Shown piece after piece: positions 11,001 to 39,171 of a stretch of DNA of 64,000 bases; the stretch's first letter is position 1, and every line of letters starts with the position of its first letter. Source of the stretch: a bacterium (GTDB lineage: Bacteria > Babelota > Babeliae > Babelales > UASB340). Location of the stretch: positions 462 to 64,461 of the forward strand of contig DAOVPV010000005.1 in NCBI GenBank assembly GCA_030629005.1, read 5' to 3'. The notes under the pieces are model-generated. The model was not told where the DNA came from. It saw nothing but the letters and a program-made list of their open reading frames with translations, and searched no databases. The translations under genes were made by a program, and so were the position numbers.

Positions 11001-11603
11001 CCTTACCGCATTTAAATAATTTTCTGTAACACTTACATCTTCATCACCCTCTTCTGAAGGTTCAGTTTTTATGTACCGTTTCAATTCTTTTAAAAGTTTC
11101 ATTCTCGTAAAAAGGCGGTCTCGATCGGACTTTGGACTACGCTCTCTTTCTCGTTCTAACCAAGCTTCAACTAAAATTTCCTCAGAGCCAGGTACAACAT
11201 CAGCTTTAACAGGCGTTGATTCTTCTTTAATTTCCTCTATAGCATTATTTAAAACTTTTACGCTCTTATAAACACCATCGGGTAGTTTTGTTTCACCAAC
11301 AGTAACATTTTCTGTAATAATCACAGAACAAGGAGGCATTTTAATATTACCAAGTGGTAATTTTTTTATATTAACATTTTGTAGTTTTAGAATCCGACCA
11401 CTTGCTTCAAAAAAAGCTTCTAAATTAAGGCTTTCTTGAAAGGGGGTCTTTTCAATTACTAGCCTTTTTTTAACTTCAGATGTTCCAGCAAAAGAAACAA
11501 ATGGTTCATCCTCAGCGCTCATCGTTTTACAGATAAAAATTAATAAGTAAATACTAGAAAATAATATTACTAAAAGCTTCTTTGAGCTATCAATTTTAAT
11601 CAT
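7980..11603 (-). CDS. Very large leader-bearing protein of unknown function
   Basis: 1207-aa uninterrupted ORF; N-terminal hydrophobic leader ('LLVILFSSIYLLIFICKTMSA'); AGGA RBS; no catalytic motif I can recognise. Confidence 0.8.
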   Translation of the reverse strand: MIKIDSSKKLLVILFSSIYLLIFICKTMSAEDEPFVSFAGTSEVKKRLVIEKTPFQESLNLEAFFEASGRILKLQNVNIKKLPLGNIKMPPCSVIITENVTVGETKLPDGVYKSVKVLNNAIEEIKEESTPVKADVVPGSEEILVEAWLERERERSPKSDRDRLFTRMKLLKELKRYIKTEPSEEGDEDVSVTENYLNAVRNGKESNFDVVRKLLNEKINNEKWRVSPFLNVETTEGQGGAAPAWVLYFLPSDRVRDTFKEFVDFINDIITKLKNRETAGEKFDREVSRKRNAFCLKKTIQKWNLPERSGILMPELLRDRFEKKELWKDSPFGVMGSRSNLSMVNAVFFEYISTRFGYGLFYNGLDPNIPGFKALEPIDGRDVFGENLNELKGASLTSLVTQVVKNEKTLSKNFIPFYHGTTLKYYIMMLIAKELYSWLNIFGDIGFIPRLVASKGEGTEFSDEHKSIYDFYNENMINESFETELMLCNLKNVDKTSPFKRDLSVIGCNNLMSFNLSLFGGMHYLKADECTYADYLIRGDAKTSVYYILNSIFDLLIKIGAGKVPEDAREGLSNNEFYISESIPIPVQDITNLPSDLQKRVLRTPVSWDGLSDDMKYKSWLFEETIKVLNKYSDDLSKKVLLQFMINKEKVNELVAITLVYGLPAHKNGALPWWIDRRTERKTAFEKKKPWDIEGLNLVKGGRSVELENWYEEYGFQAVYQKVKPSIETLFNNEYESGGPWSLAADLDNYFRPRSGRFSQQVSTIDKDSWLDSREFLKQYSENPVNVDFNSIFNYYKPWYEHYAFTVMSIFDYQDLEKRNRLFDLVQARILTKPSVFLNDQYTKSFWYLMDKFGGVDSSSGDVFEKVEADIKKFIFGLVMEPWINDMLEKDPNKVKLYSVSKLERFIDDAKEKIKSEDVTAYNKIIENELLQLTKEMDRFDEESDIKKIYHKYLLKILFHKFFSVSDYKVEAAAAAKRAIEQFEKDEVRCGWGDRGDECRKDLLLNQLGIKKKEVVFYIEREIVDFFENYKLRRGIITLRRRIISDIEYDAISKLVWLLLHKLVFMNGDPETNVFLKKEKDSVVFNIDLKDKFEDLFFRLSVKEDSLLVFKSLCGWDNNLILETDNFKGLDSLLILDDFLNLFIKHDINYKERVDSMMKAEKLRLAREIILKFNELSPEVQGELGAKVKESVEKAKKYVLKKKALKN

Positions 11604-17973: not shown

Positions 17974-18786
17974 TTATTTTCGTATCAATAACTCTTTTAA
18001 CACTGGAACACGTAGACAAATGTTATTAATAGTTCTAGGCAAACTCGCAAAACCAAAAGCATAAATTCGTATTAACAAATAAATTACATAAACTAGTAAC
18101 ATTAAATATGTTTTATTAAATGCAACTTTTGTCTTTTTCCAAATTGTTTTACTTTCAGAAAATAAAAAAACAAAAATAAATATAGAAAAACCTAAAAAGA
18201 TAGTATTTTCTCGCGAACAGATAGAAAATAAAAAAAACAAAGCTGACAAAAAATTAAATATAAATTTATTTTTAACCCAATAAAATCTAAAACTAATCAA
18301 ACTTAATAACATAAAAAAAATTGCTAAAAAGTTATGCAATGTACTTATCCAAGTTATCCAGTCCATAATAGGATAAAAAGCCAATAACAAACCAGATATT
18401 ACAGAAAAACTAATTGGCATAAAAAAAGAACACAAATAAAAGAACAGCGAAATATTTATAGCATGAAAAAATACATTTAAAAAATAATATGCCCGCACAT
18501 TAAATTCGAATAAATAATAAATAAAACTAAACGGAATATGCTGCATTGGTCTATAAAAACCGGAAACTATATTCGCTTGAGGTACATTAAAATTTACCGG
18601 ATATAAATAATTGCGCTCATCTTCTAAAAAAATGCGTAACAAATCCTTTCCAGATTTTATAATGCCGGCAATTATATTGCCACAATCATCTAAAGAAAAC
18701 CAAATTTCTTTTATAGAAAAAAAATAAAAGACAAACGTTATTAAAAATAAGGTTATTGCCCAGAAAAGTTTGGATTTAAAAAACAT
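17974..18786 (-). CDS. N-terminal portion of a GT-C fold (TMTC/PMT_2-like) membrane glycosyltransferase
   Basis: 270 aa, multi-TM; 'IWFSLDDCGNII' (DD loop-1 motif) and 'GFYRPMQHIPFSF...YFLNVFFHAINISLF' (YRP...H..N pattern); ORF ends just before the REP element. Confidence 0.5.
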   Translation of the reverse strand: MFFKSKLFWAITLFLITFVFYFFSIKEIWFSLDDCGNIIAGIIKSGKDLLRIFLEDERNYLYPVNFNVPQANIVSGFYRPMQHIPFSFIYYLFEFNVRAYYFLNVFFHAINISLFFYLCSFFMPISFSVISGLLLAFYPIMDWITWISTLHNFLAIFFMLLSLISFRFYWVKNKFIFNFLSALFFLFSICSRENTIFLGFSIFIFVFLFSESKTIWKKTKVAFNKTYLMLLVYVIYLLIRIYAFGFASLPRTINNICLRVPVLKELLIRK

Positions 18787-18789
18787 AAG

Positions 18790-20950
<2,161 letters not shown>

Positions 20951-20958
<8 letters not shown>

Positions 20959-22306
20959 AGCTCTCTCCTAAGGGACAAGACTTGTATCTAATTCTATACC
21001 AAAACATTTGTAAACCCTGTGCTACTAAAATTATCAATACTGGCTCAAACATCATCCTAAACCTAGCGCACCCATCGTGCCCAGTAATAAATGCAAAATA
21101 AAAAATATAAAAAATCAATAGAAAAAATATTTTAAAATTCCGCCTAACTAATAAAAAAATTAATGCTGCTAAAATTAAAAATATACGCAATAAACTCCAA
21201 ATTACTTCTAAAACCGCAACAAGTTTTACTGTATACAAATCTGTTCCAGATAAAACATAATTGGAAATTCGATCAAAGAATTTACCCTTAAGTTTGAAAA
21301 AGGATAAATCGCCACCTGCTAAATTTTTATTAACTAAAACTTTTAAATTTGTCGAATAAAGCCCAAACATTGTTTTCATTACATTTTTAAACCAAACTTT
21401 TATAAAAATAAAATGATCTTTTGACAAGGTTTGTTTAAAAATTTCGCCAGCCTTATCCCAACTTTTTGAATCTAATTTATTGCCAGGAACAAGCTTTGCC
21501 ATATTTTTTTGTTCAATCTTTTCTGAAGTTTTATTCTTTATTGCCAAAACTTTCGGCAACAAATAAAAATATAAATTCTCTTTTGCAAGAGTCGTCACAC
21601 AAAAATTTCCATAATTTACTTTATTGAAAACAGCATAAGAAATTACAGGAGCATAAAAAGATATTGCAAATAAAACCAAAGCTTTGAAATTTTTAAATTT
21701 GCTCTCTAAACGTAAGGAAGCAAGTAAAATTAATATAAAAAATATAAAATACATTGCTGCAGGCTTTACCCATACAGAAAGACCTAAAACTAATCCAGAA
21801 TAGACTAAATTTCGGTAATTATTTTTATACAAAAATAATACAAAAAAATACAAAAAACTTGTTAATAAAAAAACAAGCAAACTTTCTGTTAAAATGAAAT
21901 TAGAAAAAGTAATAAAGCCCACGTTTAAGCAGGACAAAATAAATGCGATAATAGCCGTACTAAATCCCCAAATTAAATTGGCAATACTAAAAATTAAAAA
22001 ACAAGTCAAAAGCACCAATATAATTTGCATCCAAATAACAGTATTATTCTTGTTACTAAATATTTTATAAATAGTAGCTAAAAACACAGGATAACCCAAA
22101 GAAAAGTATGGCACAGTTTTATCTGCTTCTTTCAAAACAGTTTTACCATGCTTATAAAACTTTTCAGCATTAAAAATATAAGCCTTTGAGTCTATATCTT
22201 GATATGGATCCACATAATTAGTATGGCTAACATAGTTGCTAAGACTTTTTGCTAAAAACAAAAAAACTAAAGAAAATATTATTAAATACATTTCTTTATA
22301 CTTCAC
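20951..22306 (-). CDS. GT-C fold membrane glycosyltransferase (ArnT/PMT family 39/83-like), copy 1
   Basis: 451 aa, more than 10 TM segments; N-terminal loop 'DSKAYIFNAEKF...PYFSLGYPVFLA'; 8-nt overlap with the manC start. Confidence 0.6.
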
Positions 22307-22308
22307 AA

Positions 22309-23793
22309 CTACCCCTTTAATTTTATGAACTTAATTCTTTCTCTTTTTACATGCCCTGCAAAAAATATATTTTCCCTATCAACATTTCCTAAAAAGGTTT
22401 CCACGCGATCAAATGCAGAAATCATTACAGCATCCATTCCATCATATTTATGCAAGCCATTTCTCCCCATCAAATATAAATTATTAAATTTAGAAAGATA
22501 GTTTTTAACAATATTTAGGCTTTCTTTGTAATTTTTATCATAAACAGGATAAGCTTCACGCTCTCTCAAAATCATTCCATCCAAAATTAAATCTTTCTCA
22601 ACTAATCCTATTTTTTCTAATTCTACTTTACCTAATTCTAGAAGCTGGCCATCTGTTTTATTCCATAAATCATCATCAACAAATGCAAAATATTCAAGAC
22701 TTAGACTAGTATGATCTTTGGCATCTATCATCTTTAAAGAAAAATTATTCATATTACCAACACGGCCCATTCGAACCGTTTTTTCATGAATATAAAGCCA
22801 ATGGTCTGGACATATATTTTTTTTATTAACAATAAAATTTACAGTTATTAAACCACGATAAGATAATTTTTTTGCCGCATTAATTATAAACTCTTCTGGC
22901 AATGGATCTAAAGACAAAATCAAATCTCGTAACGGCATTGTTGAGAAAAAAAAGTCTGCATTATATTCATTTAATTTTTTTGTAGGGCAAACTCTAGGAC
23001 TCAAATTATAAGTTAAAATGGACTTCAACGAATTTTTATTATGTTTTATCTGAATAACTTTTTCATTCAAACAAATCTTTGAATTTTTATTATCTTGAAT
23101 AATATTATCAGCCACTCGTTGCCACAAAGTGCCCGCACCAAGCTCAGGGTAATAAAAAATATCTGCCAGAGTCCGAGGAGCACTTTTCCTTGCAAACTTT
23201 CCAAAAAAAGCATAAAAAATTGCTTTGGATAAAGAAAAGCCTTTTATACGTTCACTAGCCCAGTCAGAAGAAATCTCTGTACAAGGAATTCCCCAAACTT
23301 TTTCTGAATATGTTTTAAAAAAAATAGAAAACAAACGATAACCAAATTTATTAGTTACCCAATCTTGAAATGATTTAACATTCTTAATAGGAAAAAATCG
23401 AATCTTTACATAACTAAAAACGCACAAAAAACCTTCTATTAGGCCTAAACCTAAAATTGCATCTAAAGCTTGTAATGGATAGTGAAAAAAGTGGCTTTTG
23501 TAGTAGATCCGAGTGAATCTTTTTAATTGAACAAAATTATTTTCTTTACTCTCTCCCTCCATCACTTTTTTCCACCAAAGTTCTACTTTTTTTGAATGCG
23601 TTAAAAAATGATGTGGCCCTATATCAAACTTGCAACCATTATACGTAATCGTTTTAGAAAGTCCACCAACTTGATTATCTTTTTCTAAAATATTTAAATT
23701 AAACCGTCCGGTCTTTGTTAATTCAGCCCCAGCCGTAAGACCCGCAGGACCAGCTCCTATAACTACAACTTTTTTTTTATTAAACTCATCCAT
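22309..23793 (-). CDS. FAD/NAD(P)-dependent oxidoreductase (amine-oxidase / UDP-galactopyranose-mutase-like fold)
   Basis: 494 aa; N-terminal 'KVVVIGAGPAGLTAGAEL...ILEKDNQVGG' dinucleotide-binding motif. Confidence 0.7.
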   Translation of the reverse strand: MDEFNKKKVVVIGAGPAGLTAGAELTKTGRFNLNILEKDNQVGGLSKTITYNGCKFDIGPHHFLTHSKKVELWWKKVMEGESKENNFVQLKRFTRIYYKSHFFHYPLQALDAILGLGLIEGFLCVFSYVKIRFFPIKNVKSFQDWVTNKFGYRLFSIFFKTYSEKVWGIPCTEISSDWASERIKGFSLSKAIFYAFFGKFARKSAPRTLADIFYYPELGAGTLWQRVADNIIQDNKNSKICLNEKVIQIKHNKNSLKSILTYNLSPRVCPTKKLNEYNADFFFSTMPLRDLILSLDPLPEEFIINAAKKLSYRGLITVNFIVNKKNICPDHWLYIHEKTVRMGRVGNMNNFSLKMIDAKDHTSLSLEYFAFVDDDLWNKTDGQLLELGKVELEKIGLVEKDLILDGMILREREAYPVYDKNYKESLNIVKNYLSKFNNLYLMGRNGLHKYDGMDAVMISAFDRVETFLGNVDRENIFFAGHVKRERIKFIKLKG

Positions 23794-23879
23794 GCTTTCT
23801 CTTTTTTAACCCGACTTCGCAAAAATGTAATTTTATAATCTATTTTTACAATAAAGCTTCGACGGGGTTTCGCATTGAA

Positions 23880-25274
23880 TCATAATTTAAAATTATGATT
23901 CAGCTTCACAAATTTTAACCAGAATTCAATTGATAAGAGTAACAAAATAGGTTCTATTGACAACCTTAATCTTGCAAATCCACAAGACAAAGAAATTATT
24001 ATAAATAAAAGAATAAAAAATATTAACTTAAAAAAAACTAACCTATAATCATGTGAATAGATAGAATTATAAGCAAAACCGAAAAAACCAATTATTAAAA
24101 AAATAAAAAAAATTATCTCAAAATAGATTATTGGAATAACTAATTTATTATTAACTTTTGGAAATAAAAATCTTTTAAATAAGCCTAAAAGACTGCTTTT
24201 ATTTTTATAATCTGGAAGCTTCCCGGAATCTAAAAATAAAATTTCAGAACTATACAAAGAAAAACATGTTTTTAAAACATTTCTTATACTAATTTTTAAC
24301 GCTACAAGTGGATATTTTAAAAAATAACCAAAAGCCAACCTCTCTCCAACAACACTAACTTCAGCATCGTTTAATTTTCTATTTTTTTTAATAGAAATAT
24401 TATTAATAGATTCTTCCCATTTTTTATTAACTTTGCTTAAAGCCACCATGTAAGAAATATTATCTTTTTGCATGCAAATTCTGGCTGCACCATGTTTTAT
24501 AAAATGTATCCCAGGCAAAGTTGAAAAAAATAAGCATCCTGTCAATAAATAGTTACGCAATAACCATGGCAAAACCGCAACAAACCATCCCAAAAATATA
24601 CATGCAATATTTTTAAACTTTATTAATAATTTTACTCGATCAAACTTGAATAGATATAATTTAGGATTATTAAAACCAAGCAAAATTAAAACTATAACTA
24701 GAAATATTAAATAATGACCTACAGGCCTAAACATACTAGCTAAGCCAAGGAATATTCCAGATATAAAAAGTTTTTTGAATGCCAGGAACGGAGACTTAAT
24801 CCGGGATCTAGTCCTTTTATAAAAATAAAAGATTAAAAATATTAAAAAAAATAATAAAAACAGACCATCCGTCATGGCAAGACCAGAAAAAACAACAAAC
24901 CCAACATCAAAACAAGACAATAGCGCTGCCAATTTTGCTAATAAAACATTCGCAGGAAATAACATTAAAGATAAATAAAAAATTAATATTGGAATAAAAC
25001 AAGATAAAATTATTTGTATAATTAACGAATTATTAAAATCATTAAAAATGTTTGTTGCCGCTAAAAATATAGAATACCCAGGCAAGCGGTAAAAATGCGA
25101 GCTACCATCTGCATTTGTTATTGTTTTGTTTTCTATTATTTGCTCAGCAACTTCCTTGTATACACGGCTATCAAATTGCCAAAGGACAAATTTATCTTTC
25201 ACAAAGAAACTAAAAAATAAAAATCTTATAACAAAAGCAAATATAAATATAAAAATAAAAAATTTTTTATTCAC
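23880..25274 (-). CDS. GT-C fold membrane glycosyltransferase (ArnT/PMT-like), copy 2
   Basis: 464 aa; 'FYRLPGYSIFLAA' and 'FRPVGHYLIFL' shared with copy 3; start overlaps the stop of the USP gene by 8 nt. Confidence 0.6.
   Translation of the reverse strand: MNKKFFIFIFIFAFVIRFLFFSFFVKDKFVLWQFDSRVYKEVAEQIIENKTITNADGSSHFYRLPGYSIFLAATNIFNDFNNSLIIQIILSCFIPILIFYLSLMLFPANVLLAKLAALLSCFDVGFVVFSGLAMTDGLFLLFFLIFLIFYFYKRTRSRIKSPFLAFKKLFISGIFLGLASMFRPVGHYLIFLVIVLILLGFNNPKLYLFKFDRVKLLIKFKNIACIFLGWFVAVLPWLLRNYLLTGCLFFSTLPGIHFIKHGAARICMQKDNISYMVALSKVNKKWEESINNISIKKNRKLNDAEVSVVGERLAFGYFLKYPLVALKISIRNVLKTCFSLYSSEILFLDSGKLPDYKNKSSLLGLFKRFLFPKVNNKLVIPIIYFEIIFFIFLIIGFFGFAYNSIYSHDYRLVFFKLIFFILLFIIISLSCGFARLRLSIEPILLLLSIEFWLKFVKLNHNFKL
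24794..24814. repeat. Half-copy of the hairpin element (ACTTAATCCGGGATCTAGTCC) inside GT-C copy 2
   Basis: Matches the outer end of the element at 27644-27677, at the orthologous codons ('TRSRIKS') of the paralogue. Confidence 0.7.
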
Positions 25275-26460
25275 TTAATGCTTTATTTAAACTACGTGTA
25301 TTCTTAAATATACTATTTATTATTTTTTTATTACCCACAACCACATTGTTCAAAATCACACAAGAACATGGTGCAATATTAAAGCCGTCGATTTTTATAT
25401 TACCTGTAATTTCTATATCTTCTAATTTTATAATGTTGTTATTATTTAAATTTGTATTTTCAAGACTTAAATTACCATTAATTTTTTTAGATTTCAGCTC
25501 AACCTTTTGAAACTTTTCGTCTTCTTTAAAATTTGGAGCATAAGTTTCATCAAAAAGATTAACATCTCCGGCTATTTCTTCTTTAAATTCAGGCAACTTT
25601 CTGTAAAAAACAACTACCGGAGTAAAGGATCCCTTATTTTTCAAATTATCACCTAATTTTTTTTCTTCAATTTTTTCGGTACAAATATCATTACAATACC
25701 ACCAGCTATCTAAGCCATCAGACCTTTCCTCTACCAAAGCAGTATAATGCCCAGAACTTGGAGTACGTCCATTATGATAAATTATACCAAAAAGCTCATA
25801 ATTTACGGGAGTTGCAACATCTGTCTGCTCTTCATCAATAGTAATATTTTCATTAATAATAATATTAGTTAAAATTTTAACATCAATTAGGCCTCTTTCT
25901 ATACACATAATAAAAATATTAGGAGTTTTTTTAAATTTCTTCGTAAACTGTTCATTTAATAAATCTTGAAACGATGAATCTTCCTTTATGGTATCAAATA
26001 TCAAAAGATTGAGCTGATCTCGCACATCTGGTCTTGTTAAATTAAAAGAATAAGATAAACAATCTAAATCTACAAAACAAGAATCTTTGCTTAGTATTTT
26101 TGATAAAAGCTTGGCCACAGGATGTTGAGTCCCCCCAAAACCTCCATTTTTATTCAAAGAAAATAAATTATTAAGGACACTTCCATCACACTCATTCTTA
26201 ATATCTAAATGACGACCCTGACTTGTATCTGCCAAATCATTTAAAATTTTACAAAGACATGTTTGTTCTTGATTTTTTTCAATTAATTTATCAAACAAAA
26301 GGTCTTTAAATGAAGCAAGGCATTGTAATGTTGAATTTAAAAAGCATGTGCTACCGTTATTTTGCAGTCCCCTTCTAGCAGATATGTTTTGAAAAAAAAA
26401 TGGAAATATTAAAATTAAAATTATTTTTGTAGTAAAGATTTTATTTATTTTTTTATTCAT
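25267..26460 (-). CDS. Leader-bearing ubiquitin-specific protease (USP/UCH, peptidase C19) homologue
   Basis: Cys box 'GLQNNGSTCFLNSTLQCL'; His box 'YELFGIIYHNGRTPSSGHYTALV' followed by 'WWYCNDICTEKI'; GGAG RBS before the ATG at 26460; hydrophobic leader 'IILILIFPFFFQNISA'. Confidence 0.8.
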   Translation of the reverse strand: MNKKINKIFTTKIILILIFPFFFQNISARRGLQNNGSTCFLNSTLQCLASFKDLLFDKLIEKNQEQTCLCKILNDLADTSQGRHLDIKNECDGSVLNNLFSLNKNGGFGGTQHPVAKLLSKILSKDSCFVDLDCLSYSFNLTRPDVRDQLNLLIFDTIKEDSSFQDLLNEQFTKKFKKTPNIFIMCIERGLIDVKILTNIIINENITIDEEQTDVATPVNYELFGIIYHNGRTPSSGHYTALVEERSDGLDSWWYCNDICTEKIEEKKLGDNLKNKGSFTPVVVFYRKLPEFKEEIAGDVNLFDETYAPNFKEDEKFQKVELKSKKINGNLSLENTNLNNNNIIKLEDIEITGNIKIDGFNIAPCSCVILNNVVVGNKKIINSIFKNTRSLNKALSE

Positions 26461-26511
26461 AAAAACTCCAATCATATAAACACTAAAAATTACATTTTCC
26501 GTATAACAAAA

Positions 26512-28161
26512 TCAAATATCTAATTTGAATATATTTGTATAAAAACCAAATGATACAAGTATTAATAACGGTTCTATTGGCAAGCGCATTCTAGCATAAC
26601 CACCAGCAAGGCCAATTACTAAAAAGAATGAAATAAAGGCAAACATAGAAAAAAATTTTGATTCTAAAACGAACCCTGAATAACAAAATAAATAAACCAA
26701 GAAGCTTCCAAAAACTCCCAACAAAATAAACAAAAACAAAACTATTTCAAAATAAACTAATAATTTTAAATATATATTCTTCGTAGGTGGAATTAAGTAA
26801 CGCTTAAGCAAATCCCAAACCGTTCGTTTATTAGAAAAATAATCTATACTTTGCCTATTATTTTCTAGATATAAAATTTCTGCAGAATACAAAGAAAAGC
26901 TTGTTCTAAATATATCTATTAAAAAATTCTTTATTGTTATAAATGGATATTTCTTAAAATATTTAAACGCTAAATCAAACTGTAAATTACAATATTCTAT
27001 TTCATTTAAATCCCGGCCCAATTCATTTTTTTTCTCTTGAGCCAACAAGCTTACCTTTTTTCTTAAAATTTCTTTAGTTTTATCATAACTGCATCCTTCT
27101 TCTAACATCGCACTACGAGCTGCTGCAAAGTTTAAAAAATGCCCACCAGGTAAAGTATGAAAAAAAACTTGTCCCTGAGCAACATAATTCCTTACAAGCC
27201 AAGGACTAACAACAATTATAAAACCTAAAGTTAAAAATAAACTTTTTTTTATATTTAATTTTAATTTTTTTTTTATATCTGGATCCCCGATCAAGCCGGG
27301 GATGACAAGAGAGATTTTATTATTTTTAAAATTTAAATTATTTAAAAAAATTAAAATCACAGACAAAAATAATAAATAGTGGCCAACAGGACGAACGAGA
27401 CCAGCAAGACCAAGAAATATACCGGCAACAAAAAGATTTTTGAATGCCGAGCTACTACTTCGTTGAAACTTCGAAGTACAAGACGGAGATCCCGGATCGT
27501 AGTCTCCAGTCTTCGCCATGGGCTTCGACGGACAGGCAGGAATGACAGTGCCTACGGCGCTGTTAATGCTACCAGTACCTAACCCAATATTGCTTTCATT
27601 TAACCCATACTTTGTATTGACCAAATAGTGCTCGCTTTCTGCGTTTGTCATCCCGGACTTGATCCGGGATCTAGTCCCTTTATAAAAATAAAAGATCAAA
27701 AAAAATATAAACAAAAATATAAACAAAGTCTCTGACATAAAAAAGCCAGAATATAAAACAAGACCAATTTGAATAGCACTATACAAAGAAGAAAGCTTTG
27801 CCAAAACCAAGCTTTTTGGAAATAAAATTAAAGATAATAAAAAAATCAATACGGGAATTAACGATCCCAAAAGTATTTGAAACCACAAAACATTTTTGGT
27901 ATCCACACCAAATAATTTATAAAAACTAGCCAAAAACATTGGATATCCTGGTAACCGATAAAAATTTTGTTTACCATTTACTGAATAACCATGCCCAGAA
28001 GAAATGCTTTTAGCTATTTTATGATAAGTATTAGAATCTACCTGCCAGTAATTATTATTTTTAGATAAATAACTATTAAAAATGAAGCTTCTAATTAAAA
28101 AAGAAAACACAAATAAAATTAATAAAAAATACTTATGCTCCTTTATCAATCTAATTATCAA
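26512..28161 (-). CDS. GT-C fold membrane glycosyltransferase (ArnT/PMT-like), copy 3, carrying in-frame repeat-element insertions
   Basis: 549 aa; collinear with copy 2 ('FYRLPGYPMFLAS', 'VRPVGHYLLFL') apart from a 66-codon GC-rich insertion and a 'VIPGLIGDP' hairpin insertion. Confidence 0.6.
   Translation of the reverse strand: MIIRLIKEHKYFLLILFVFSFLIRSFIFNSYLSKNNNYWQVDSNTYHKIAKSISSGHGYSVNGKQNFYRLPGYPMFLASFYKLFGVDTKNVLWFQILLGSLIPVLIFLLSLILFPKSLVLAKLSSLYSAIQIGLVLYSGFFMSETLFIFLFIFFLIFYFYKGTRSRIKSGMTNAESEHYLVNTKYGLNESNIGLGTGSINSAVGTVIPACPSKPMAKTGDYDPGSPSCTSKFQRSSSSAFKNLFVAGIFLGLAGLVRPVGHYLLFLSVILIFLNNLNFKNNKISLVIPGLIGDPDIKKKLKLNIKKSLFLTLGFIIVVSPWLVRNYVAQGQVFFHTLPGGHFLNFAAARSAMLEEGCSYDKTKEILRKKVSLLAQEKKNELGRDLNEIEYCNLQFDLAFKYFKKYPFITIKNFLIDIFRTSFSLYSAEILYLENNRQSIDYFSNKRTVWDLLKRYLIPPTKNIYLKLLVYFEIVLFLFILLGVFGSFLVYLFCYSGFVLESKFFSMFAFISFFLVIGLAGGYARMRLPIEPLLILVSFGFYTNIFKLDI
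27281..27309. repeat. Solo hairpin element GGATCCCCGATCAAGCCGGGGATGACAAG, in frame within the CDS
   Basis: 7-bp GC stem (ATCCCCG/CGGGGAT); translates as 'VIPGLIGDP' in a loop absent from the paralogue. Confidence 0.7.
27487..27677. mobile_element. MITE-like composite: two inverted copies of the (CT)AGATCCCGG...GGATGACA hairpin element flanking ~95 nt, in frame within the CDS
   Basis: Left copy 27487-27548 (expanded loop); right copy 27644-27677 (TTTGTCATCCCGGACTTGATCCGGGATCTAGTCC); conspicuously GC-rich compared with the flanks. Confidence 0.65.
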
Positions 28162-30355
28162 AAACCTCGAAGCCTCCGTTATTTCTAACTAATTTATCTA
28201 CAGTAAGAGTTAATCTTGAAGTTTCTATAATTCGTTTTAAAGGAATCGGTAATTTGTGACTACTTATTCTAACATTTAATATAAACTCATCTAACAAATA
28301 TTGATGCCCCTTATCGGCATATTTATCTGTCCTATTAAAAGAAACTGGCACACCAAATCCTTTTAATACCTTATAATCTTTCATCCAAATAGATTTCCCA
28401 TCAAATAAAATTTCCATATGCTCTTTGCCCATGGCACAATTACCCAAAGAAGAATATGTAAAATTACAACAAGAACCATCTGACATTCTAACAGTTGCTA
28501 TAAAATTATCTATGTTAGATGCATCATCATTATGACTATTAATTGTTTGAACACTCACAGATACCGGGAAAGCATCTGTTAAAAAACAAAATAAATCAAA
28601 AATATGACATGCTTCACCAATAATTCTACCACCATTTTCTTTATCGTTTACCCAGTGTTCTTTAGAAACATAACCCGCATTCATTCTATAATTTATAATT
28701 AATGGATTTGCCCTATTTGAAACAACATTTTTTATTATTAAATTAAACGGCGCAAATGATCGATTAAAATCGACAGTATAAAGAACCTTAGGATTTTGTT
28801 CAAATAGCTTTTCCAATAAATAAAGCTGTTCAAAATTAACAACAGCAGGTTTTTCTACAAATACAGCTTTTCTATATTTTAATGCATCAATAGACTGTTC
28901 AAAATGATATTTATGTGGAGTCGCAATTACCACCACACTTATATCTTCATCGTTAAAAACTCTATCCGTAATATTACCTATTTTTTTTACACCATAAGTT
29001 TTTGCAACAGTTAACATATTAGAATTGTTTTTATCCACCAAGGTGTGTAAATTAACAAATCTATTTCTATTCAAAATAGGCAACAGTTTAACCTTTGCAA
29101 AACCGCCAACTCCAATAAAGCCAACTTGTATTTTTCCACGTGGTGAAACATATTTTGGCAATATTAAATTATCAAAATTTTGATTTTTGTATGAATCTTT
29201 TTTTTTATAAGATTCTATTGAATTCAAAGCTTCTCTCGATATATTCTGACCAAATGTAAACAAAGCGCCAAGACCTCTTTGTTTTTTCAAGTAAAAATAA
29301 GCTCTTTCGGCTTCACTAATATCAAACTCCTGGTCAGCCAAAAAACCTATATTAATTTTTTTGTTTTCTATTAATTCTACAAATAAATCCATATTTCTAT
29401 TTTCGGTCCAACGAACATATGGATATGGATAATCTATACCTTTATTTTCATAGTTAGAATCATAACGTCCAGGACCATATGCACAAGAAATTAAAAAGTC
29501 GATTTCTTTTGAATAAAAAGGATCCCTATCAAAATTAATATCTACATTTCCAACTAAAACAACTCGCCCTTTACGCCGAGTGTAAGTCATAGCATTATTT
29601 ATTATAGACTTATCTCTTCCTGCTGCAGCTATTATTGTAGCGTCAACGCCTTTATGCTTTGTAAGAAAATTTATTTGCTCTTCAATGCCTGTTTTCGCGT
29701 CTAAAACAAAATCTATTCCATTTTTTTTAGCCAATTCTAATCTAGACGGATCTATGTCTATTCCAAAAACTTTACATCCAGCCAATTTACAAAGTTGTGC
29801 TGTAATTTGTCCAATAAGCCCCAATCCTATAACAGCAACACTTTCTCCCAAGCTCAAATTAGCTCTCCTAAAACCCTGCATAGCAATAGAGCCAATTGTT
29901 GTAAGACTTGCAAGTTTCAAATTATTTTTATTAAAAACTTTTACAGCTAAATTAACCGGAACAGAAGCATATTCAGCATGGTTTGCAATATTAGCACCCG
30001 CACACGCAACATAATCTCCTATCTTGAATTTGTCGATATTCTTACCAACTGCAACAACTTTACCCGAGCAAGAATAACCAAGCGCAGACGTCAAACTTAA
30101 TTTATTTTTAATTAAAGAAAGTGTACCCATTGGGCCATCAGACTTTATTGCACCAAATATTTTACTAACATTTTTAGAACTATTTTCTGTAATTTTTTTA
30201 ATTAAATTTTTTTCTGATTCACCGATAGTAGCTAATTCTGTTCCTGAGCTTATAAAAGAATAATAAACTTTTACTAGAATGCTATTATCTTCAAGCAAAG
30301 GAATAGGAACATCTTGTAAAAATAAATTGCCTTTTCTTAAAAAAAGTTGTCTCAT
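28151..30355 (-). CDS. Bi-domain oxidoreductase: N-terminal zinc-type alcohol dehydrogenase (MDR) fused to a C-terminal Gfo/Idh/MocA domain
   Basis: 734 aa; 'VAVIGLGLIGQITAQLCKLAGCKVFGIDID' (MDR Rossmann); 'VGFIGVGGFAKVKLLPIL' and 'VFVEKP' (Gfo/Idh/MocA). Confidence 0.75.
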   Translation of the reverse strand: MRQLFLRKGNLFLQDVPIPLLEDNSILVKVYYSFISSGTELATIGESEKNLIKKITENSSKNVSKIFGAIKSDGPMGTLSLIKNKLSLTSALGYSCSGKVVAVGKNIDKFKIGDYVACAGANIANHAEYASVPVNLAVKVFNKNNLKLASLTTIGSIAMQGFRRANLSLGESVAVIGLGLIGQITAQLCKLAGCKVFGIDIDPSRLELAKKNGIDFVLDAKTGIEEQINFLTKHKGVDATIIAAAGRDKSIINNAMTYTRRKGRVVLVGNVDINFDRDPFYSKEIDFLISCAYGPGRYDSNYENKGIDYPYPYVRWTENRNMDLFVELIENKKINIGFLADQEFDISEAERAYFYLKKQRGLGALFTFGQNISREALNSIESYKKKDSYKNQNFDNLILPKYVSPRGKIQVGFIGVGGFAKVKLLPILNRNRFVNLHTLVDKNNSNMLTVAKTYGVKKIGNITDRVFNDEDISVVVIATPHKYHFEQSIDALKYRKAVFVEKPAVVNFEQLYLLEKLFEQNPKVLYTVDFNRSFAPFNLIIKNVVSNRANPLIINYRMNAGYVSKEHWVNDKENGGRIIGEACHIFDLFCFLTDAFPVSVSVQTINSHNDDASNIDNFIATVRMSDGSCCNFTYSSLGNCAMGKEHMEILFDGKSIWMKDYKVLKGFGVPVSFNRTDKYADKGHQYLLDEFILNVRISSHKLPIPLKRIIETSRLTLTVDKLVRNNGGFEVFDN

Positions 30356-30386
30356 TATTTACTCTCTAAAAAAATGCTTTGTGAAG

Positions 30387-31694
30387 TTAGTTTTTGTACC
30401 TCTTATACATAAGTCCACACTCATCAACAATAATTTTATTTTTTAAATCTATGTTTTTTAATTTTAAAAAAAAGGCGTGTGGAACTAAAATTAAAATAAT
30501 ATCTGACCATAATACAGCAGACTCTAAATTATCAAATCTTCTGAATTTAAATTTATTTAACTCCAATTTAATTATGTTTGGTTCATAAACTGCAAAATCA
30601 AATTTATTTTTATTAGTGTTAAGTTTTTCGGAAGAAACATTTAATGTTAATGTTTTCGAAATTTCTAAAGCAGGAGAACCACGAAGATCATCAACATCTG
30701 CTTTAAAAGTTAATCCTAAAGAAAGCACATTGGGTTTTTTATCCCTTTTTTTATAAAAGGCTTCAACTGTTTTTAATAAATTATTAATAACTAAGCCAGG
30801 CTTATTATCATTAATCTTTCTTGCCATCTGTATAATTTGAGTTTTATCTGGAAACGTTTCTATCAAAAACCATGGGTCAACTGCAATACAATGCCCGCCA
30901 ACACCACAACCTGGAGTTAAAATATTTACCCTTGGATGTTTATTTGCAAGCTCTATTAATTTAAACGGATCTATACCTGCAGACTTCGCCAAATCTGAAA
31001 CTTCATTTGCAAAAGCAATATTTACATCCCTGTAAGCATTTTCTGTTAATTTTACCATTTCAGCAGTCTTATCATCTGTAAGATAAATATTTCCTGTTAT
31101 AAATTCGGAAGAAACATTTAATATTTTTGAATAAAAATCTTTAGCAAGCTCTCCGGATTCAGAACAAATACCACCGATAACCCTATCATTAGAAATTAGT
31201 TCTTCAAAAATTTTACCTGGCAAAACTCGTTCTGGACAATGTGCAACATAAAAATCTTTTGAACATTCTAAACCCGAATTTACTTGTAAAATTTCTGCAA
31301 ACTTTTGAGTTGTACCAACAGGAACTGTTGATTCTAAAATTACTAAATTATTTTTATTAAGAACTTTTGATATCTCTTTGGCTGCACTAAATACATAAGA
31401 TAAATCTGCTTTTTTATGTTCATCAAAATTATTTTCTAGAAATGGAGTCGGAACAGCAACAACAAAGACATCTGCTGCAATTATTTTGTTACTTGCTTTA
31501 AAATTCCCAGACTTTATTGCTAACTTAAGTTTTTCATCGATTCCTGTTTCGAATATTGGTGATTCTGTTTTATTAATTTTTTCTATTTTAGAAATATCAA
31601 CATCAAAACCAAAAACTTGATAACCAGAGAGTGCGGATACTATAGCTGTTGGCAAGCCAATATAACCCAAACCAACAATAGTAACTTTCTTCAT
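30387..31694 (-). CDS. wecC: UDP-N-acetyl-D-mannosamine dehydrogenase-type nucleotide-sugar dehydrogenase
   Basis: 'KVTIVGLGYIGLPTA', 'TAEMVKLTENAYRDVNIAFANE', 'GVGGHCIAVDPWF'; GGAG RBS before the ATG at 31694. Confidence 0.8.
   Translation of the reverse strand: MKKVTIVGLGYIGLPTAIVSALSGYQVFGFDVDISKIEKINKTESPIFETGIDEKLKLAIKSGNFKASNKIIAADVFVVAVPTPFLENNFDEHKKADLSYVFSAAKEISKVLNKNNLVILESTVPVGTTQKFAEILQVNSGLECSKDFYVAHCPERVLPGKIFEELISNDRVIGGICSESGELAKDFYSKILNVSSEFITGNIYLTDDKTAEMVKLTENAYRDVNIAFANEVSDLAKSAGIDPFKLIELANKHPRVNILTPGCGVGGHCIAVDPWFLIETFPDKTQIIQMARKINDNKPGLVINNLLKTVEAFYKKRDKKPNVLSLGLTFKADVDDLRGSPALEISKTLTLNVSSEKLNTNKNKFDFAVYEPNIIKLELNKFKFRRFDNLESAVLWSDIILILVPHAFFLKLKNIDLKNKIIVDECGLMYKRYKN
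30627..30648. repeat. Dispersed motif copy TTCGGAAGAAACATTTAATGTT (codes 'LNVSSEK' on the minus strand)
   Basis: Direct reading; shares more than 18 nt with 31104-31122 and 39399-39420. Confidence 0.8.
31104..31122. repeat. Dispersed motif copy TTCGGAAGAAACATTTAAT (codes 'LNVSSEF')
   Basis: Direct reading; same orientation and reading frame as the other copies. Confidence 0.8.
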
Positions 31695-31739
31695 CACTAC
31701 TCCACTAACCACAGATTATATGCACACAACCTGTATTTT

Positions 31740-32870
31740 TTATAAATTTAATTTTTTTCTAATTATAGAAACAATACGATTACAACTATTCCCGTCACCA
31801 TAAATTGATGACATTTTCTCCGTACCTTTTTTTAGATGATAGCATTTTTCTAAAGAAGATAAAATTAATTTTTCATTAGTTCCAACAAGATCTTCCGAAC
31901 CATCCCAAACGCCCTCCCAACGCTCGGTTACATCTCGCAAAACAATAACATGTTTGCCCAAACTTACAGCTTCTTCTTGAATCCCGCCAGAGTCCGTAGC
32001 AATAAAATCTGCATTTAATAAAATATAAATCAAATCTTTATACAAAAGAGAATCAGTCATAAAAATATTTTTAACATCCGAAATTCCAGACTCTTTTATA
32101 GCACCCAAAACATTTGGGTTTGGATGTTTAGGATAAATAAATAAAACATCTTCGTGCAATTGTGCAAATTTTTTAATACTACTAAAAATTCGCAAAAGCC
32201 CCGGACCAAAAGATTCTCTTCTATGCGCAGTAAGTAAAATTATTTTTTTATTTTCACTTTTGGTTTTATTTACAATATCTTCTATTATTTTGTCTATTTT
32301 TATTTGCCCAAACAAAATTAAATCTTTCATCCAGAACAAAGCATCAACAACAGTATTACCAGTGCAAAAAACTTTATTTCTATCTACACCTTCGGATAAT
32401 AAATTTGCAGTAGAAAATGCAGTTGGCGCAAAATGAAAATCTGCAATTTGAGAAACCAATTTTCTGTTTAATTCTTCTGGAAATGGAGAGCGCATATTGC
32501 CAGTTCTAAGTCCAGCTTCAACATGCCCTGTTGGAATATTCATGTAAAACGCAGCAAGAGCCGCCGCCATTGTGGTTGTTGTATCACCATGAACTAAGAC
32601 TAATATTGGATTAACTTTTTGATAAACCTCACGAACTCTTTCCATTATTGTTCTTTGTAGATAAAAAAGATCTTGCCCTTCTATCATTACGTCAAGATTA
32701 AAATCTGGAGAAACTTTAAAGATATCGAAAACTTGCTGTAACAAATCAGAGTGCTGAAATGTCGCGCATAAAAGTGTGTTTATGTTTTCTTTTTTGAATG
32801 CAATATAAAGGGGCACAAGCTTTATAGCCTCTGCCCTTGTACCTACAACTAAAAGAATTGGTCTTTGCAT
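31740..32870 (-). CDS. wecB: UDP-N-acetylglucosamine 2-epimerase (non-hydrolysing)
   Basis: 376 aa; 'ILLVVGTRAEAIKLVPL', 'HVEAGLRTGN', 'TDSGGIQEEA'. Confidence 0.9.
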   Translation of the reverse strand: MQRPILLVVGTRAEAIKLVPLYIAFKKENINTLLCATFQHSDLLQQVFDIFKVSPDFNLDVMIEGQDLFYLQRTIMERVREVYQKVNPILVLVHGDTTTTMAAALAAFYMNIPTGHVEAGLRTGNMRSPFPEELNRKLVSQIADFHFAPTAFSTANLLSEGVDRNKVFCTGNTVVDALFWMKDLILFGQIKIDKIIEDIVNKTKSENKKIILLTAHRRESFGPGLLRIFSSIKKFAQLHEDVLFIYPKHPNPNVLGAIKESGISDVKNIFMTDSLLYKDLIYILLNADFIATDSGGIQEEAVSLGKHVIVLRDVTERWEGVWDGSEDLVGTNEKLILSSLEKCYHLKKGTEKMSSIYGDGNSCNRIVSIIRKKLNL

Positions 32871-32975
32871 ATTACTCTAACCATTTCGTCTTTTTATTAA
32901 TAAAATTATTAAACTATTTCAATTAGCTTTGCATCTTTGATGTATAATACAATCCGTTCTACCAGTCAACAATAC

Positions 32976-33287
32976 CGCCCAACGCTTACGCATAGGGCTA
33001 CTACAAATACGCCCGCTCACGCAGGCTTATTCTTTGTAATAGAGCTATGGCGTTCTTCTTGGTTTAAAATATAATTTTTTATTTTTTGTAAAGAACTACG
33101 ATCAACAGGAAAAACACCGTAACCTTGTTGCCAGGAAAAATCAGATAAAAAAATAAACATAATTATTTTTCATAGTTAATCTAACAATTACAACCTAAAT
33201 AAAATCCTATTCTTAAACATTTATCAATAAAAAAAAGCCTGCGTAAGCGGGCGTATTTGTGGTAGCCCTATGCGTAAGCGTTGGGCG
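32976..33287. mobile_element. Decayed REPtron: ~50-nt GC-rich inverted arms enclosing a Y1 (IS200/RAYT-like) transposase remnant
   Basis: Arms 32976-33025 and 33238-33287 match 48/50 as inverted repeats and share the CGCCCAACGCTTACGCATAGGGCTAC core with 17795-17957. Confidence 0.8.
33017..33160 (-). pseudogene. C-terminal remnant of an IS200-like / REP-associated tyrosine transposase
   Basis: 47-codon ORF 'MFIFLSDFSWQQGYGVFPVDRSSLQKIKNYILNQEERHSSITKNKPA' matches the family C-terminal pattern WQxGYxxFSV...YIxNQExHH; the N-terminal HUH part is absent. Confidence 0.65.
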
Positions 33288-33366
33288 ATATTGTTTTCTT
33301 ATATTTTAATATTAATACATTCATAAACCTTATGATTTTAATCATATTTAAAATTAAAATATTTGC

Positions 33367-33399: not shown

Positions 33400-33424
33400 T
33401 AACTTAAATCCCTTTTTATAATCT

Positions 33425-37509: not shown

Positions 37510-39171
37510 TTAAACAACAGTTGGTGTTATAAAAATCATTAACTGATCATCACTTTTTAATTTTCTTCTACCAGAAAAAAGCAAACCTAATAATGGAATA
37601 TTCTGCAACACAGGAACTCCATTTTTAATTTTACGCTTTTCATTAGAAATTAGACCACCAATTAAAGTCGTCTGCCCGCTACCAAGAAGAACTCTATTCT
37701 TTGATTTGTTCATAACAATTACAGAAGTCTTTGCTGCAAATGTTGCATCTTTAAAATAAGAATGCTCTACAAAAATATCTAAAAATACAGATTTTCCATC
37801 CGGAGAAACTTCTGGTTTTACTTTAAGTTTCATGCCCAAATCTTTGTAACTTATGGTGTCAATACTTCTTAAAGAACCTTCTATCCGTTCTTGGACATTA
37901 GTTTCTATAGGCACTTGTTGACCTACCAAAATTTCTGCCGGCTCTCCACTGTTTACAAGCAAACTTGGTTTTAAAATAGTTTCTATTTCGCTTTTATTTT
38001 CAGCCGCATTTAAAACCAAATTTAAACGTTTAGAATTTAAATCATTGCCACCAAATATAAACGGGAAGTTTAAAAACCGACTTGCACTATCCGGTAATAA
38101 ATTCAAAGCCCAATCCATAAGATTCCCGTCTTTAAAATCCCCCTGCCCACCTGTTTTTATAGGACCAAATCCTGCAACATTCCATCCATGATTAATACTT
38201 GCAGATCTATTGTAAACACCAGAAACTTGAAATCCAAAACTTTCTTCAAAATCTTTAGCTGCAACTACAATTCGAGCCTCTATTCGAACCTGCGGGATAT
38301 TAGAATCTATTTCTTTTAAATAGTTTTTAAAATCTCTCGCCTGAGACTGTAGGCATCTAAAAAAAATCTTCTTGGTATTGTCATCAAAAGCAATATAAAA
38401 GCCATCTTTACTTTCTATGCTTCCAACAATCCCTGCCCACATTTTTTCCACACGCAATTTAAAACTCTCAGTCCACTTTGCATTATTAACAGTAAATGAT
38501 TCCGCAATAAAAGAATTACTTCTAATATTCTTTAGAATCGGTACAGCCTTAACCGCCGGCATAATACGTAAAATATTATTTTGATTTATTAATACTAATT
38601 CCGACTGCACGCTAGATAATATTATTTTCAATGCATTATCAAGACTTATATTCTTAAAATTTATATTTTGTAGTACACCAAAAACAGACGAGTCTATAAC
38701 AAAATTTAAACCGGCTGTCTGAGCAATAAGAGATATGATGCTTTTTATATCAGCTGATTTTATTTTTAACGATATTTTATTATTCAAAAGAGATTTATGA
38801 TTATATTGTGAATCTATAACCTCTTGTAAATCTTGCAATACTAACTTTTTAACAGGTAGCACATCTTGCTTACTAACATCCTGTTTATCATTTTTAAATT
38901 GAGATAAAAAGTTATCTAACTTTGCTTTGTCATTTATTAACTCTTCCGCCCTTTTTTCTAATTGTTTATCTGAGCTTTTTACGATTTCTTTAACCGTCTT
39001 ACCAAACCGTTCTAGCTCTTTATCTTCAGATTTATCCTTTGCCTCTTGTAGCAATTCTGAAGTATAACTTGGAACGCGAGATAAATCAGGATTTTCATTT
39101 GGCAAAAAAACGTCATTTGCATTTAGTTTTAAAAAAAATAAAATAAAAAATAAGATCAAAATAAAATTCAT
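37510..39171 (-). CDS. pilQ: Secretin (type IV pilus PilQ-like)
   Basis: 553 aa; C-terminal secretin signature 'NGVPVLQNIPLLGLLFSG...IFITPTVV'; preceded by small PilP-like and PilO-like genes. Confidence 0.75.
   Translation of the reverse strand: MNFILILFFILFFLKLNANDVFLPNENPDLSRVPSYTSELLQEAKDKSEDKELERFGKTVKEIVKSSDKQLEKRAEELINDKAKLDNFLSQFKNDKQDVSKQDVLPVKKLVLQDLQEVIDSQYNHKSLLNNKISLKIKSADIKSIISLIAQTAGLNFVIDSSVFGVLQNINFKNISLDNALKIILSSVQSELVLINQNNILRIMPAVKAVPILKNIRSNSFIAESFTVNNAKWTESFKLRVEKMWAGIVGSIESKDGFYIAFDDNTKKIFFRCLQSQARDFKNYLKEIDSNIPQVRIEARIVVAAKDFEESFGFQVSGVYNRSASINHGWNVAGFGPIKTGGQGDFKDGNLMDWALNLLPDSASRFLNFPFIFGGNDLNSKRLNLVLNAAENKSEIETILKPSLLVNSGEPAEILVGQQVPIETNVQERIEGSLRSIDTISYKDLGMKLKVKPEVSPDGKSVFLDIFVEHSYFKDATFAAKTSVIVMNKSKNRVLLGSGQTTLIGGLISNEKRKIKNGVPVLQNIPLLGLLFSGRRKLKSDDQLMIFITPTVV

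Follow-up and report, generated by a model that had tools for sequence, protein, structure and literature searches.

The subject of this study is a gene for a USP-family (peptidase C19) hydrolase on the minus strand of a 64,000-nt stretch of DNA (NCBI GenBank assembly GCA_030629005.1, contig DAOVPV010000005.1, positions 462 to 64,461 of the forward strand), which was analysed computationally at its full length and is called the window in the following. The gene product is a new, somewhat aberrant member among the secreted C19/USP hydrolases of the Dependentiae, a biochemically unexplored group, and it is probably a compact deubiquitinase-type effector of a Babeliales parasite that is exported via Sec and a type II secretion system (T2SS) and has a non-canonical substrate recognition. 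Most noteworthy are the degeneration of Box 2 and of the Fingers in the catalytic core, the recurrent use of the junction between two glycosyltransferase genes (GT-C1 and GT-C2) by eukaryote-like genes, and a C-terminal module with a PCS motif. The features of the USP gene are as follows.

25267..26460, minus strand: USP-family (peptidase C19) gene, 397 amino acids (aa), stop codon included, from the open reading frame (ORF) list and the Pfam UCH match
26466..26469, minus strand: Shine-Dalgarno-like GGAG, 5 nt 5′ of the ATG at 26460, read from the sequence
26377..26460, minus strand: predicted Sec-type signal peptide, aa 1-28, with n-region MNKKINK, h-region IFTTKIILILIFPFFF and c-region QNISA
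25585..26376, minus strand: minimal USP catalytic core (thumb, palm and stub Fingers), aa 29-292, from the AlphaFold2 model and Foldseek
26317..26370, minus strand: Cys box, aa 31-48, GLQNNGSTCFLNSTLQCL, with oxyanion Asn34, catalytic Cys39 and Gln46
26107..26127, minus strand: aberrant Box 2, aa 112-118, TQHPVAK versus the consensus QQDAxEF, with Asp replaced by Pro114 and Glu by Lys117
25942..26085, minus strand: Fingers stub, ~aa 126-173, with two short predicted strands and a low-confidence loop at 140-149
25687..25800, minus strand: His box and Asp box, aa 221-258, with His238 (25747-25749), gatekeeper Tyr239 and Asp258 (25687-25689)
25270..25578, minus strand: C-terminal beta-rich PCS-motif module, aa ~295-397, from identity to the C-termini of the proteins P0013 and P0038 (see below) and from AlphaFold2

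The family identity of the product was confirmed far above chance, with the C19 fold, an intact catalytic triad and the oxyanion residue in place. The Pfam profile PF00443 (UCH) matched aa 35-272 of the mechanically defined ORF over profile positions 1-241 of 254 (E=1.5e-22, 80.9 bits versus a gathering cut-off of 23.9), and the best sequence matches in the PDB were all USPs (Ubp6/USP14, USP36, USP1, USP15 and USP7), the alignments to Ubp6 taking in the block of the His box and the Asp box. Both USP signature boxes reported in the initial annotation are present. In an alignment of the protein with 95 relatives, the columns of the Cys-box residues Asn34, Cys39 (codon 26344-26346, minus strand), Asn42 and Gln46 are conserved to 97-100%, and the second signature, YELFGIIYHNGRTPSSGHYTALV ... 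WWYCNDICTEKI, is found at aa 221-264 with His238 and Asp258 at 100% and Tyr239 at 98% conservation. The retained Tyr239 is the aromatic gatekeeper typical of Gly-Gly-specific deubiquitinases. The 96-sequence alignment also served as input for an AlphaFold2 model, which reached a mean predicted local distance difference test score (pLDDT) of 77 and a predicted template modelling score (pTM) of 0.77, with pLDDT values of 87-96 around both catalytic boxes. Foldseek matched this model in the PDB to USP12, USP46, USP1, USP35, USP30 and USP18 (E ~1e-12, template modelling (TM) score 0.52-0.64, normalised to the target).

The ORF as delimited mechanically (25267-26475, minus strand, 402 aa) holds two in-frame ATGs, at 26475 and 26460. 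The second is favoured as the start because a GGAG with a 5-nt spacer lies 5′ of it, which argues for a product of 397 aa. This product is 100% identical to P0001, a protein called on two public assemblies of the same sequence (ENA ERZ23498683 scaffold_40, 110.6 kb, and a contig of Logan SRR13892594), and both gene callers use the ATG at 26460.

Relatives were sought in 1.84 billion representative proteins by an exhaustive search, in which 791 proteins scored at E<=0.001 and 178 were fetched. A word-index homologue search with the full protein had returned only the protein itself and weak eukaryotic USP14/Ubp6 matches; the exhaustive search recovered P0013, the metallophosphatase P0038 and bacterial mini-USPs. 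P0013 is the only close USP relative among the representatives (36% identity by BLASTP) and comes from the same metagenome sample, and no orthologue of the USP copy was found among the 1.84 billion. After P0013 (best domain 86.5 bits) the next-nearest sequences are mixed bacterial and eukaryotic USPs at ~50 bits. The gene itself has a GC content of 27.4%, 18.1% at third codon positions, and in codon usage it has a distance of 0.028, one of the smallest values for the 31 window genes tested. Since the composition is native and the nearest sequences are of mixed origin, a recent transfer from amoeba to bacterium cannot be shown.

Several of the proteins retrieved deserve a description of their own. 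P0014 to P0019, which rank directly behind P0013 among the non-self hits, are vertebrate 'uncharacterized proteins' of great length (from fish, birds, turtles and a gopher) in which USP18-like stretches recur 6-20 times; they score so high because the repeats add up and not because they are close to the query. P0134 (L085 8001-10535, Candidatus Babeliales bacterium, MBY0353144.1) carries a leader and two USP domains joined by a Pro/Thr-rich linker, with a Metallophos gene near; its second domain has Cys replaced by Arg in the Cys box and His by Glu in the His box and is probably a pseudo-USP. At another locus (L125/L126 5036-6885; GCA_003165355.1 and a JGI metagenome) two mini-USPs of 292-322 aa and 294 aa stand in tandem with a 4-nt overlap, ~3.3 kb from a secretin gene. 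For two relatives (MBY0353144.1 and MFH1254727.1) the name given by NCBI is ubiquitin carboxyl-terminal hydrolase, the source being a Babeliales bacterium or a bacterial metagenome-assembled genome (MAG).

The substrate-binding part of the core departs from this conserved picture. At Box 2 the Asp is present in 95 of the 95 aligned USPs and the Glu in 81 of them, whereas the protein has Pro and Lys there, and the same register was obtained with MAFFT, with BLAST against P0013 and with an independent profile hidden Markov model (HMM) alignment. The Box-2 acidic residue binds Arg72/74 of ubiquitin in canonical USPs and in TssM of Burkholderia, which retains the Box-2 Glu (PMC10719079, PMC10371091). 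Between Box 2 and the L.RF palm strand there are 74 residues, the minimum of the 96 aligned sequences (median 120), and ~90 profile nodes are unmatched at the Fingers region. P0013, in contrast, retains a canonical Box 2 and full Fingers with a long CxxC insert. Equally short, leader-bearing mini-USPs exist (P0036/P0173, P0048 and P0152), and since all of them keep the Box-2 Asp (the Glu being kept in P0036/P0173 and P0048 and replaced by Gln in P0152), short Fingers alone are not a sign of decay. With the Fingers reduced to a stub and Asp/Glu changed to Pro/Lys, we infer that the protein must recognise its substrate in another way than canonical USPs do, a situation also found in the fingerless TssM.

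The N-terminal hydrophobic leader noticed earlier is likewise present. Hydropathy and a rule script gave a single -3/-1 candidate cleavage site after residue 28 (between ISA and RR, before RRGL), so that the Cys box would begin 3 residues past the predicted site. The n-region is basic and the hydrophobic core has 11 residues; because this is too short for a membrane anchor, the leader is likely a cleavable Sec signal peptide. Similar leaders were seen on other eukaryote-like enzymes of the window (a Ser/Thr kinase and a cPLA2-like lipase) and on large ORFans. A leader directly before the C19 domain also occurs in P0013, P0134 and ~30 other relatives, 31 of the 178 fetched proteins having a hydrophobic leader and a Cys box within 45 residues, and those leader-bearing relatives that were looked up sit among bacterial housekeeping genes (secA, murJ, pheT, lspA, ATP synthase). 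For the further way out, one gene ~11 kb from the USP gene has to be considered.

37510..39171, minus strand: secretin (GspD/PilQ type), from Pfam Secretin and GspD N0

Its NCBIfam scores are 188 bits for PilQ and 159 bits for GspD, both under their cut-offs, and it is a candidate outer-membrane exit for Sec-exported proteins. In Babela a T2SS is the only secretion system detected, with a predicted role in the export of host-interaction proteins (PMC4378268), every TM6 genome examined has gspD twice (PMC4776705), and in Chromulinavorax 44% of the coding sequences have signal peptides, the products being proposed as Sec-dependent effectors (PMC6561590).

The host genome is, from the sequence matches, that of an uncultured Babeliales (Dependentiae/TM6) bacterium. 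The GC content of the window is ~29% throughout; its alanyl-tRNA synthetase has Candidatus Babeliales/Dependentiae MAGs as best genome matches (50-60% identity), other phyla following at ~40%; many of the 95 GT-C homologues are labelled Candidatus Babeliales, Dependentiae or candidate division TM6; and the glycan operon around the USP gene shows synteny to TM6 GW2011_GWF2_28_16 and further Dependentiae assemblies, with protein identities of 57-80%. Babeliales are obligate intracellular parasites of protists (PMC4378268, PMC6561590, PMC4776705). A TLC-type ATP/ADP transporter at 58045-59403 (minus strand, E=6e-22), a marker of energy parasitism, fits the Dependentiae assignment, and RtcB is also encoded in the window.

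The genomic position of the USP gene was analysed within the following set of genes.

17974..32870, minus strand: same-strand glycan gene cluster, 11 genes including the USP gene, from Pfam and NCBIfam
31740..32870, minus strand: wecB
30387..31712, minus strand: wecC
28151..30355, minus strand: fused ADH_zinc/GFO_IDH oxidoreductase (734 aa)
26512..28161, minus strand: GT-C1, the upstream paralogue, 549 aa by ORF and 532 aa as called, with a weak PMT_2 match
25267..25274, minus strand: 8-nt overlap GTGAATAA of the USP stop and the GT-C2 GTG start, from the sequence, with the same start in the ENA gene calls
23880..25274, minus strand: GT-C2, the downstream paralogue, 464 aa
22309..23793, minus strand: flavin adenine dinucleotide (FAD) oxidoreductase
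20951..22306, minus strand: PMT_2 GT-C
19897..20958, minus strand: manC
~18790..19885, minus strand: gmd
17974..18786, minus strand: membrane protein

The location between two GT-C paralogues in a glycan cluster and the 8-nt overlap with the downstream one, both described in the initial annotation, were borne out: all genes are on the same strand, and GT-C1 and GT-C2 are paralogues with 40-49% identity over two blocks (E=5e-41). By the paralogue alignment, the GTG is the sole GT-C2 start that preserves the first membrane helix. Comparison with related genomes gives the arrangement a different meaning. In GCA_001468925.1 (L127) the same genes stand in the same order with 58-76% protein identity, and GT-C1 and GT-C2 overlap by 4 nt; in TM6 GW2011_GWF2_28_16 (L128) the gene order is conserved and the overlap is 8 nt. 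Searches by tblastn with the USP and its C-terminal module gave no match in these two orthologous operons or in that of GCA_042576165.1 (L129). Because GT-C1 and GT-C2 abut without a USP gene in related genomes, the gene is, on this comparison, a lineage-specific insertion in a conserved glycan operon and not a conserved component of the glycan pathway, and it probably rides on the transcript of the operon. The locus of P0013 lies on another scaffold of the same metagenome sample, beside HTH_8, PNPase, rpsO and rpoBC genes and far from glycan genes.

The same junction has accepted a different eukaryote-like gene elsewhere: in L129 a leader-bearing WD40 protein of 333 aa (3296-4297) is encoded exactly between GT-C1 and GT-C2, and a leader-bearing leucine-rich repeat protein (7228-8016) stands between the FAD oxidoreductase and PMT_2 genes. 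Judged from these gene orders, eukaryote-like genes have entered the glycan operon of Dependentiae more than once. A metagenome scan with the fused oxidoreductase of 734 aa returned 35 loci at 32-41% identity, which say nothing on synteny because they belong to unrelated organisms and have no GT-C pair or USP gene nearby. The USP gene is flanked by an 18-nt direct repeat with one mismatch (25227-25244 and 26502-26519), with the GT-C1 stop inside one copy and the second copy in GT-C2 codons 11-16. It could be an insertion scar but is compatible with chance in AT-rich DNA, with ~0.16 chance pairs expected in the 4.4-kb region (an estimate) and the adjacent bases unaligned.

Within the cluster every gap is <=86 nt or an overlap, and no convincing terminator was found in 17974-32870; the only strong terminator-like hairpin is located just upstream of the cluster, after the kinase gene, at 33374-33400. 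With short gaps, no internal terminator and the 8-nt overlap, co-transcription of the USP gene with the operon and translational coupling of GT-C2 are plausible. A sigma-70 promoter scan gave no usable signal in DNA this rich in AT (84 sites versus 91.6 expected). In the intergenic region 32871-33424 (550 nt, upstream of wecB) the element GCCTGCGTGAGCGGGC at 33011-33026 (minus strand) recurs in near-identical form as GCCTGCGTAAGCGGGC at 33237-33252 (plus strand), the copies being ~210 nt apart on opposite strands.

Of the two flanking genes, GT-C2 has 95 homologues, many annotated as GT39 or ArnT-like in Babeliales, and is 62% identical to P0183 and 57% to P0182, both in syntenic operons. GT-C1 is 58-62% identical to its L127 orthologue, which is without aa ~160-240, so GT-C1 appears to carry a lineage-specific in-frame insert. 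Two GC-rich inverted arms of 30 nt (27279-27308 and 27645-27674), 87% complementary and 336 nt apart, bracket this insert of ~69-80 aa, which is missing from the L127 orthologue and from the paralogue GT-C2. Each arm is a small palindrome, ATCCCGGA-N5-TCCGGGAT, a pattern found 2 times in the window versus 0 expected; the arms translate as TRSRIKS and VIPGLIGDP, and GT-C2 has one TRSRIKS copy. The insert looks like a palindromic element of the repetitive extragenic palindrome (REP), Rickettsia palindromic element (RPE) or miniature inverted-repeat transposable element (MITE) type, placed in frame in a membrane-protein gene.

The C-terminal module of the USP shares 54% identity with the C-terminal end of P0013 and 47% with that of the metallophosphatase P0038. 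Modelled alone with AlphaFold2 it reached a pLDDT of 84 and is all-beta with a terminal helix. It had no Pfam hit, and a fold search of the PDB gave no significant match, only weak beta-helix matches with a best E of 0.2. Further copies were found by a local HMM search (A1 profile) of six-frame translations, one of them in the window.

11235..11423, minus strand: second PCS-motif copy, near the N-terminus and just after the leader of a 1207-aa protein (7980-11603), from hmmsearch with the A1 profile

This copy scored 36.7 bits (E=1e-9), and the same profile finds the module in two proteins of the P0013 contig (L083), of 811 aa (7326-9848, minus strand) and 151 aa (6601-7146, plus strand). The module of ~70-100 aa is thereby common to six leader-bearing proteins, namely the two USPs, the metallophosphatase P0038 and the 1207-, 811- and 151-aa proteins; it stands at either end of the mature protein, and the signature ...NV.I....N..PCS.VI..NV.IG...i.G.fKn... 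is conserved in all carriers. By its distribution it is a mobile module of proteins predicted to be exported, and an undescribed domain. The carriers belong to the same or a closely related genome. Between the window and L083 the tetranucleotide correlation is r=0.97-0.98 and the GC contents are 33% vs 29%, values equally reached by other Babeliales loci, so that one genome and related Babeliales cannot be told apart by them; the occurrence of the module in both favours the same or a sister genome.

On these grounds the USP is probably an exported, host-directed enzyme. The pre-protein would cross the inner membrane via Sec and lose its leader, and the mature enzyme would be released by way of a T2SS-type secretin or packed into outer-membrane vesicles. 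Either inside the host cytoplasm or at the surface of the bacterium or of its vacuole, it would strip ubiquitin or a ubiquitin-like modifier from conjugates, which would shield the parasite from ubiquitin-dependent host defence; its gene would be transcribed with the glycan operon, with GT-C2 coupled to it in translation via the overlap. The initial annotation had proposed a host-directed effector co-expressed with envelope glycosylation genes. Its first half fits best, because the host genome is that of an intracellular Dependentiae/Babeliales parasite and the kinase and the lipase of the window carry like leaders; a conserved tie to glycosylation did not stand, as L127 and L128 are without the USP gene and P0013 lies at an unrelated locus. 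The following points weigh against the exported deubiquitinase. The Box-2 Asp/Glu that grips ubiquitin Arg72/74 is replaced and the Fingers are reduced, and the protein may bind ubiquitin poorly or not at all; the leader was called by simple rules, not by a trained predictor; and co-transcription is deduced solely from gene spacing and the lack of terminator-like sites.

Of the alternatives, one would have the exported enzyme remove host ubiquitin, possibly ester-linked, from the surface glycans of the bacterium itself, with co-expression under selection; it is considered unlikely. RNF213-type ubiquitylation of lipopolysaccharide (LPS) is known from mammals and is not known from protists, which counts against it. 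The model for such an enzyme is TssM, a Sec/T2SS-exported minimal USP acting on ubiquitylated LPS (PMC10371091, PMC10719079), and the present USP resembles it in its reduced Fingers and additional non-catalytic domain, lies among envelope glycan genes with which it overlaps, and has a secretin gene near. However, it is not a TssM relative, canonical eukaryotic USPs being best in sequence and structure, an N-terminal Ig-like domain is missing, related genomes do not share the operon association, and Babeliales are reported to be without most LPS genes (PMC4776705). A periplasmic or envelope role, the other reading offered initially, survives as a minority view in the form of a re-purposed USP-fold protease that belongs to the glycan cluster and acts on a non-ubiquitin substrate, for example a Gly-Gly-ended protein or a GT-C glycoprotein. 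The leader, the 8-nt overlap with GT-C2, the lost contacts to the ubiquitin tail and the Fingers stub would suit it, and GT-C enzymes act on the periplasmic face. It is nevertheless improbable: two orthologous operons lack the USP gene and a third has an unrelated WD40 gene in its place, the closest relative P0013 keeps a canonical Box 2 and Fingers far from glycan genes, eukaryote-like proteins as a rule carry leaders in this genome and phylum, and Tyr239, the Gly-Gly gatekeeper, is kept. The synteny data weigh against both of these operon-linked readings.

Decay of a duplicated effector, which would have lost substrate binding and survive through its place in an expressed operon, perhaps as a binding protein or pseudo-enzyme, is given still less credit. 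The change of Asp to Pro, unique against 95 of 95 relatives, that of Glu to Lys and the shortest spacing from Box 2 to the palm in the set would agree with it, and inactive USP domains do occur in Babeliales, as in the second domain of P0134. On the other hand, the reading frame is unbroken, is preceded by a Shine-Dalgarno sequence and shows native codon usage, every catalytic and oxyanion residue is kept, the AlphaFold2 model is confident around the active site, and the Box-2 Asp persists in equally short leader-bearing mini-USPs (as does the Glu in two of the three). That an assembly chimera or eukaryotic contamination placed a host USP gene in a bacterial contig is suggested by the eukaryotic flavour of the domain and nothing else. 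The ENA and Logan assemblies agree in the same gene-to-gene junctions, the reading frame overlaps the bacterial neighbour GT-C2, the Shine-Dalgarno sequence and the leader are bacterial in type, there are no introns, and GC content and codon usage are those of the neighbours; this origin is effectively refuted, and because the composition is native a very recent transfer can be set aside with it. As an extension of the preferred reading, that of an exported effector, it is conceivable, though doubtful, that this USP copy has switched its substrate to another Gly-Gly modifier or to ubiquitin that is weakly bound and joined by ester linkage to the surface glycans of the bacterium itself, that its insertion site was selected for expression timing and that the PCS module represents a novel domain for targeting or anchoring a set of exported proteins. 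With Lys in place of the residue that usually contacts ubiquitin Arg72, a modifier with an acidic P5 residue, such as SUMO, would be preferred, and a junction that gives effectors the expression timing of an envelope operon would explain the WD40 gene at the same junction elsewhere.

Further genes of the window concern export and host interaction. A eukaryote-type Ser/Thr kinase (33425-34519, minus strand, Pkinase E=4.5e-29) and a cPLA2-type lysophospholipase (5650-7068, plus strand, PLA2_B E=5.5e-21), both leader-bearing, are further candidate exported effectors. Two overlapping adjacent genes (14199-15224 and 15221-16663, minus strand) encode leader-bearing proteins with weak Pretoxin-HINT matches and are possibly polymorphic-toxin-like.

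A secreted C19 hydrolase in a Babeliales genome is expected, and current views are not overturned by it. With 31 of the 178 fetched relatives of this type, there appears to be a large, untouched reservoir of leader-bearing mini-USPs in Dependentiae and similar parasites of protists. The copy studied here is a natural experiment, in which the catalytic residues are kept and the Fingers and the canonical tail-binding acidic pair are lost; it could show how little of the USP scaffold suffices, or reveal a changed specificity. The synteny illustrates cleanly how effector genes are dropped, in reduced genomes, into a conserved operon of housekeeping type, and the PCS-motif module, as an undescribed domain, marks a set of proteins predicted to be exported.

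The view that such a gene has no well-documented precedent has to be given up in light of the predicted C19 hydrolases of Babela, of TssM, of the Amoebophilus USPs and of the common leader-plus-USP relatives. In Burkholderia, the fingerless USP TssM is secreted by the T2SS and takes ubiquitin off LPS (PMC10719079, PMC10371091); it is the only bacterial USP-type enzyme characterised biochemically (PMC10719079); ubiquitylated LPS is its physiological substrate, and its esterase activity tolerates weak S1 binding and lost active-site features (PMC10371091, PMC10719079). The TssM of B. pseudomallei/mallei and the present protein are both bacterial USPs far below the length of eukaryotic ones, with reduced Fingers, one extra non-catalytic domain and the Cys/His/Asp and Asn residues kept. 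TssM is exported by the general secretory/T2SS route and not by type III, IV or VI secretion systems (T3SS, T4SS, T6SS), a route that is only predicted for the USP here. Its Fingers are wholly lost and a Littlefinger loop takes over ubiquitin binding, whereas a two-strand stub is predicted here; its extra domain is N-terminal and Ig-like (Big5), whereas the one here is C-terminal and has no Ig-like match; and it keeps the Box-2 Glu, which the present USP does not. Most LPS genes are, besides, reported to be missing from Babeliales. Membership in the TssM family was rejected, TssM being absent from the best 60 PDB sequence matches and the best 50 Foldseek matches, all of which are eukaryotic USPs.

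Compact USPs of giant viruses (Pithovirus, Hyperionvirus, Hokovirus and Megaviridae; 273-309 aa) are similar in size and fold, matching the model with Foldseek E values of 1e-11 to 1e-12, TM scores of ~0.57-0.66 (normalised to the target) and 16-18% identity; they share the niche inside protists, and no C-terminal module appears in their alignments with the USP. Amoebophilus asiaticus, likened here by description, has predicted USPs, for example Aasi_1805, that are up-regulated early in infection (PMC8831229). These, too, are predicted host-directed USPs of an obligate amoeba symbiont, which, however, belongs to the Bacteroidota and for which a T6SS-iv route is proposed, in contrast to Dependentiae and Sec/T2SS here. 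Closest are the predicted secreted C19 hydrolases of Babeliales, of which three are reported for Babela massiliensis (Pagnier et al. 2015, PMC4378268). They have in common with the present USP the phylum, the UCH/C19 domain, a signal peptide directly before the Cys box, the presumed export by Sec and T2SS and the presumed target, host ubiquitin, whereas the USP described here is set apart by its PCS module, the Pro/Lys of Box 2 and its site in a glycan operon.

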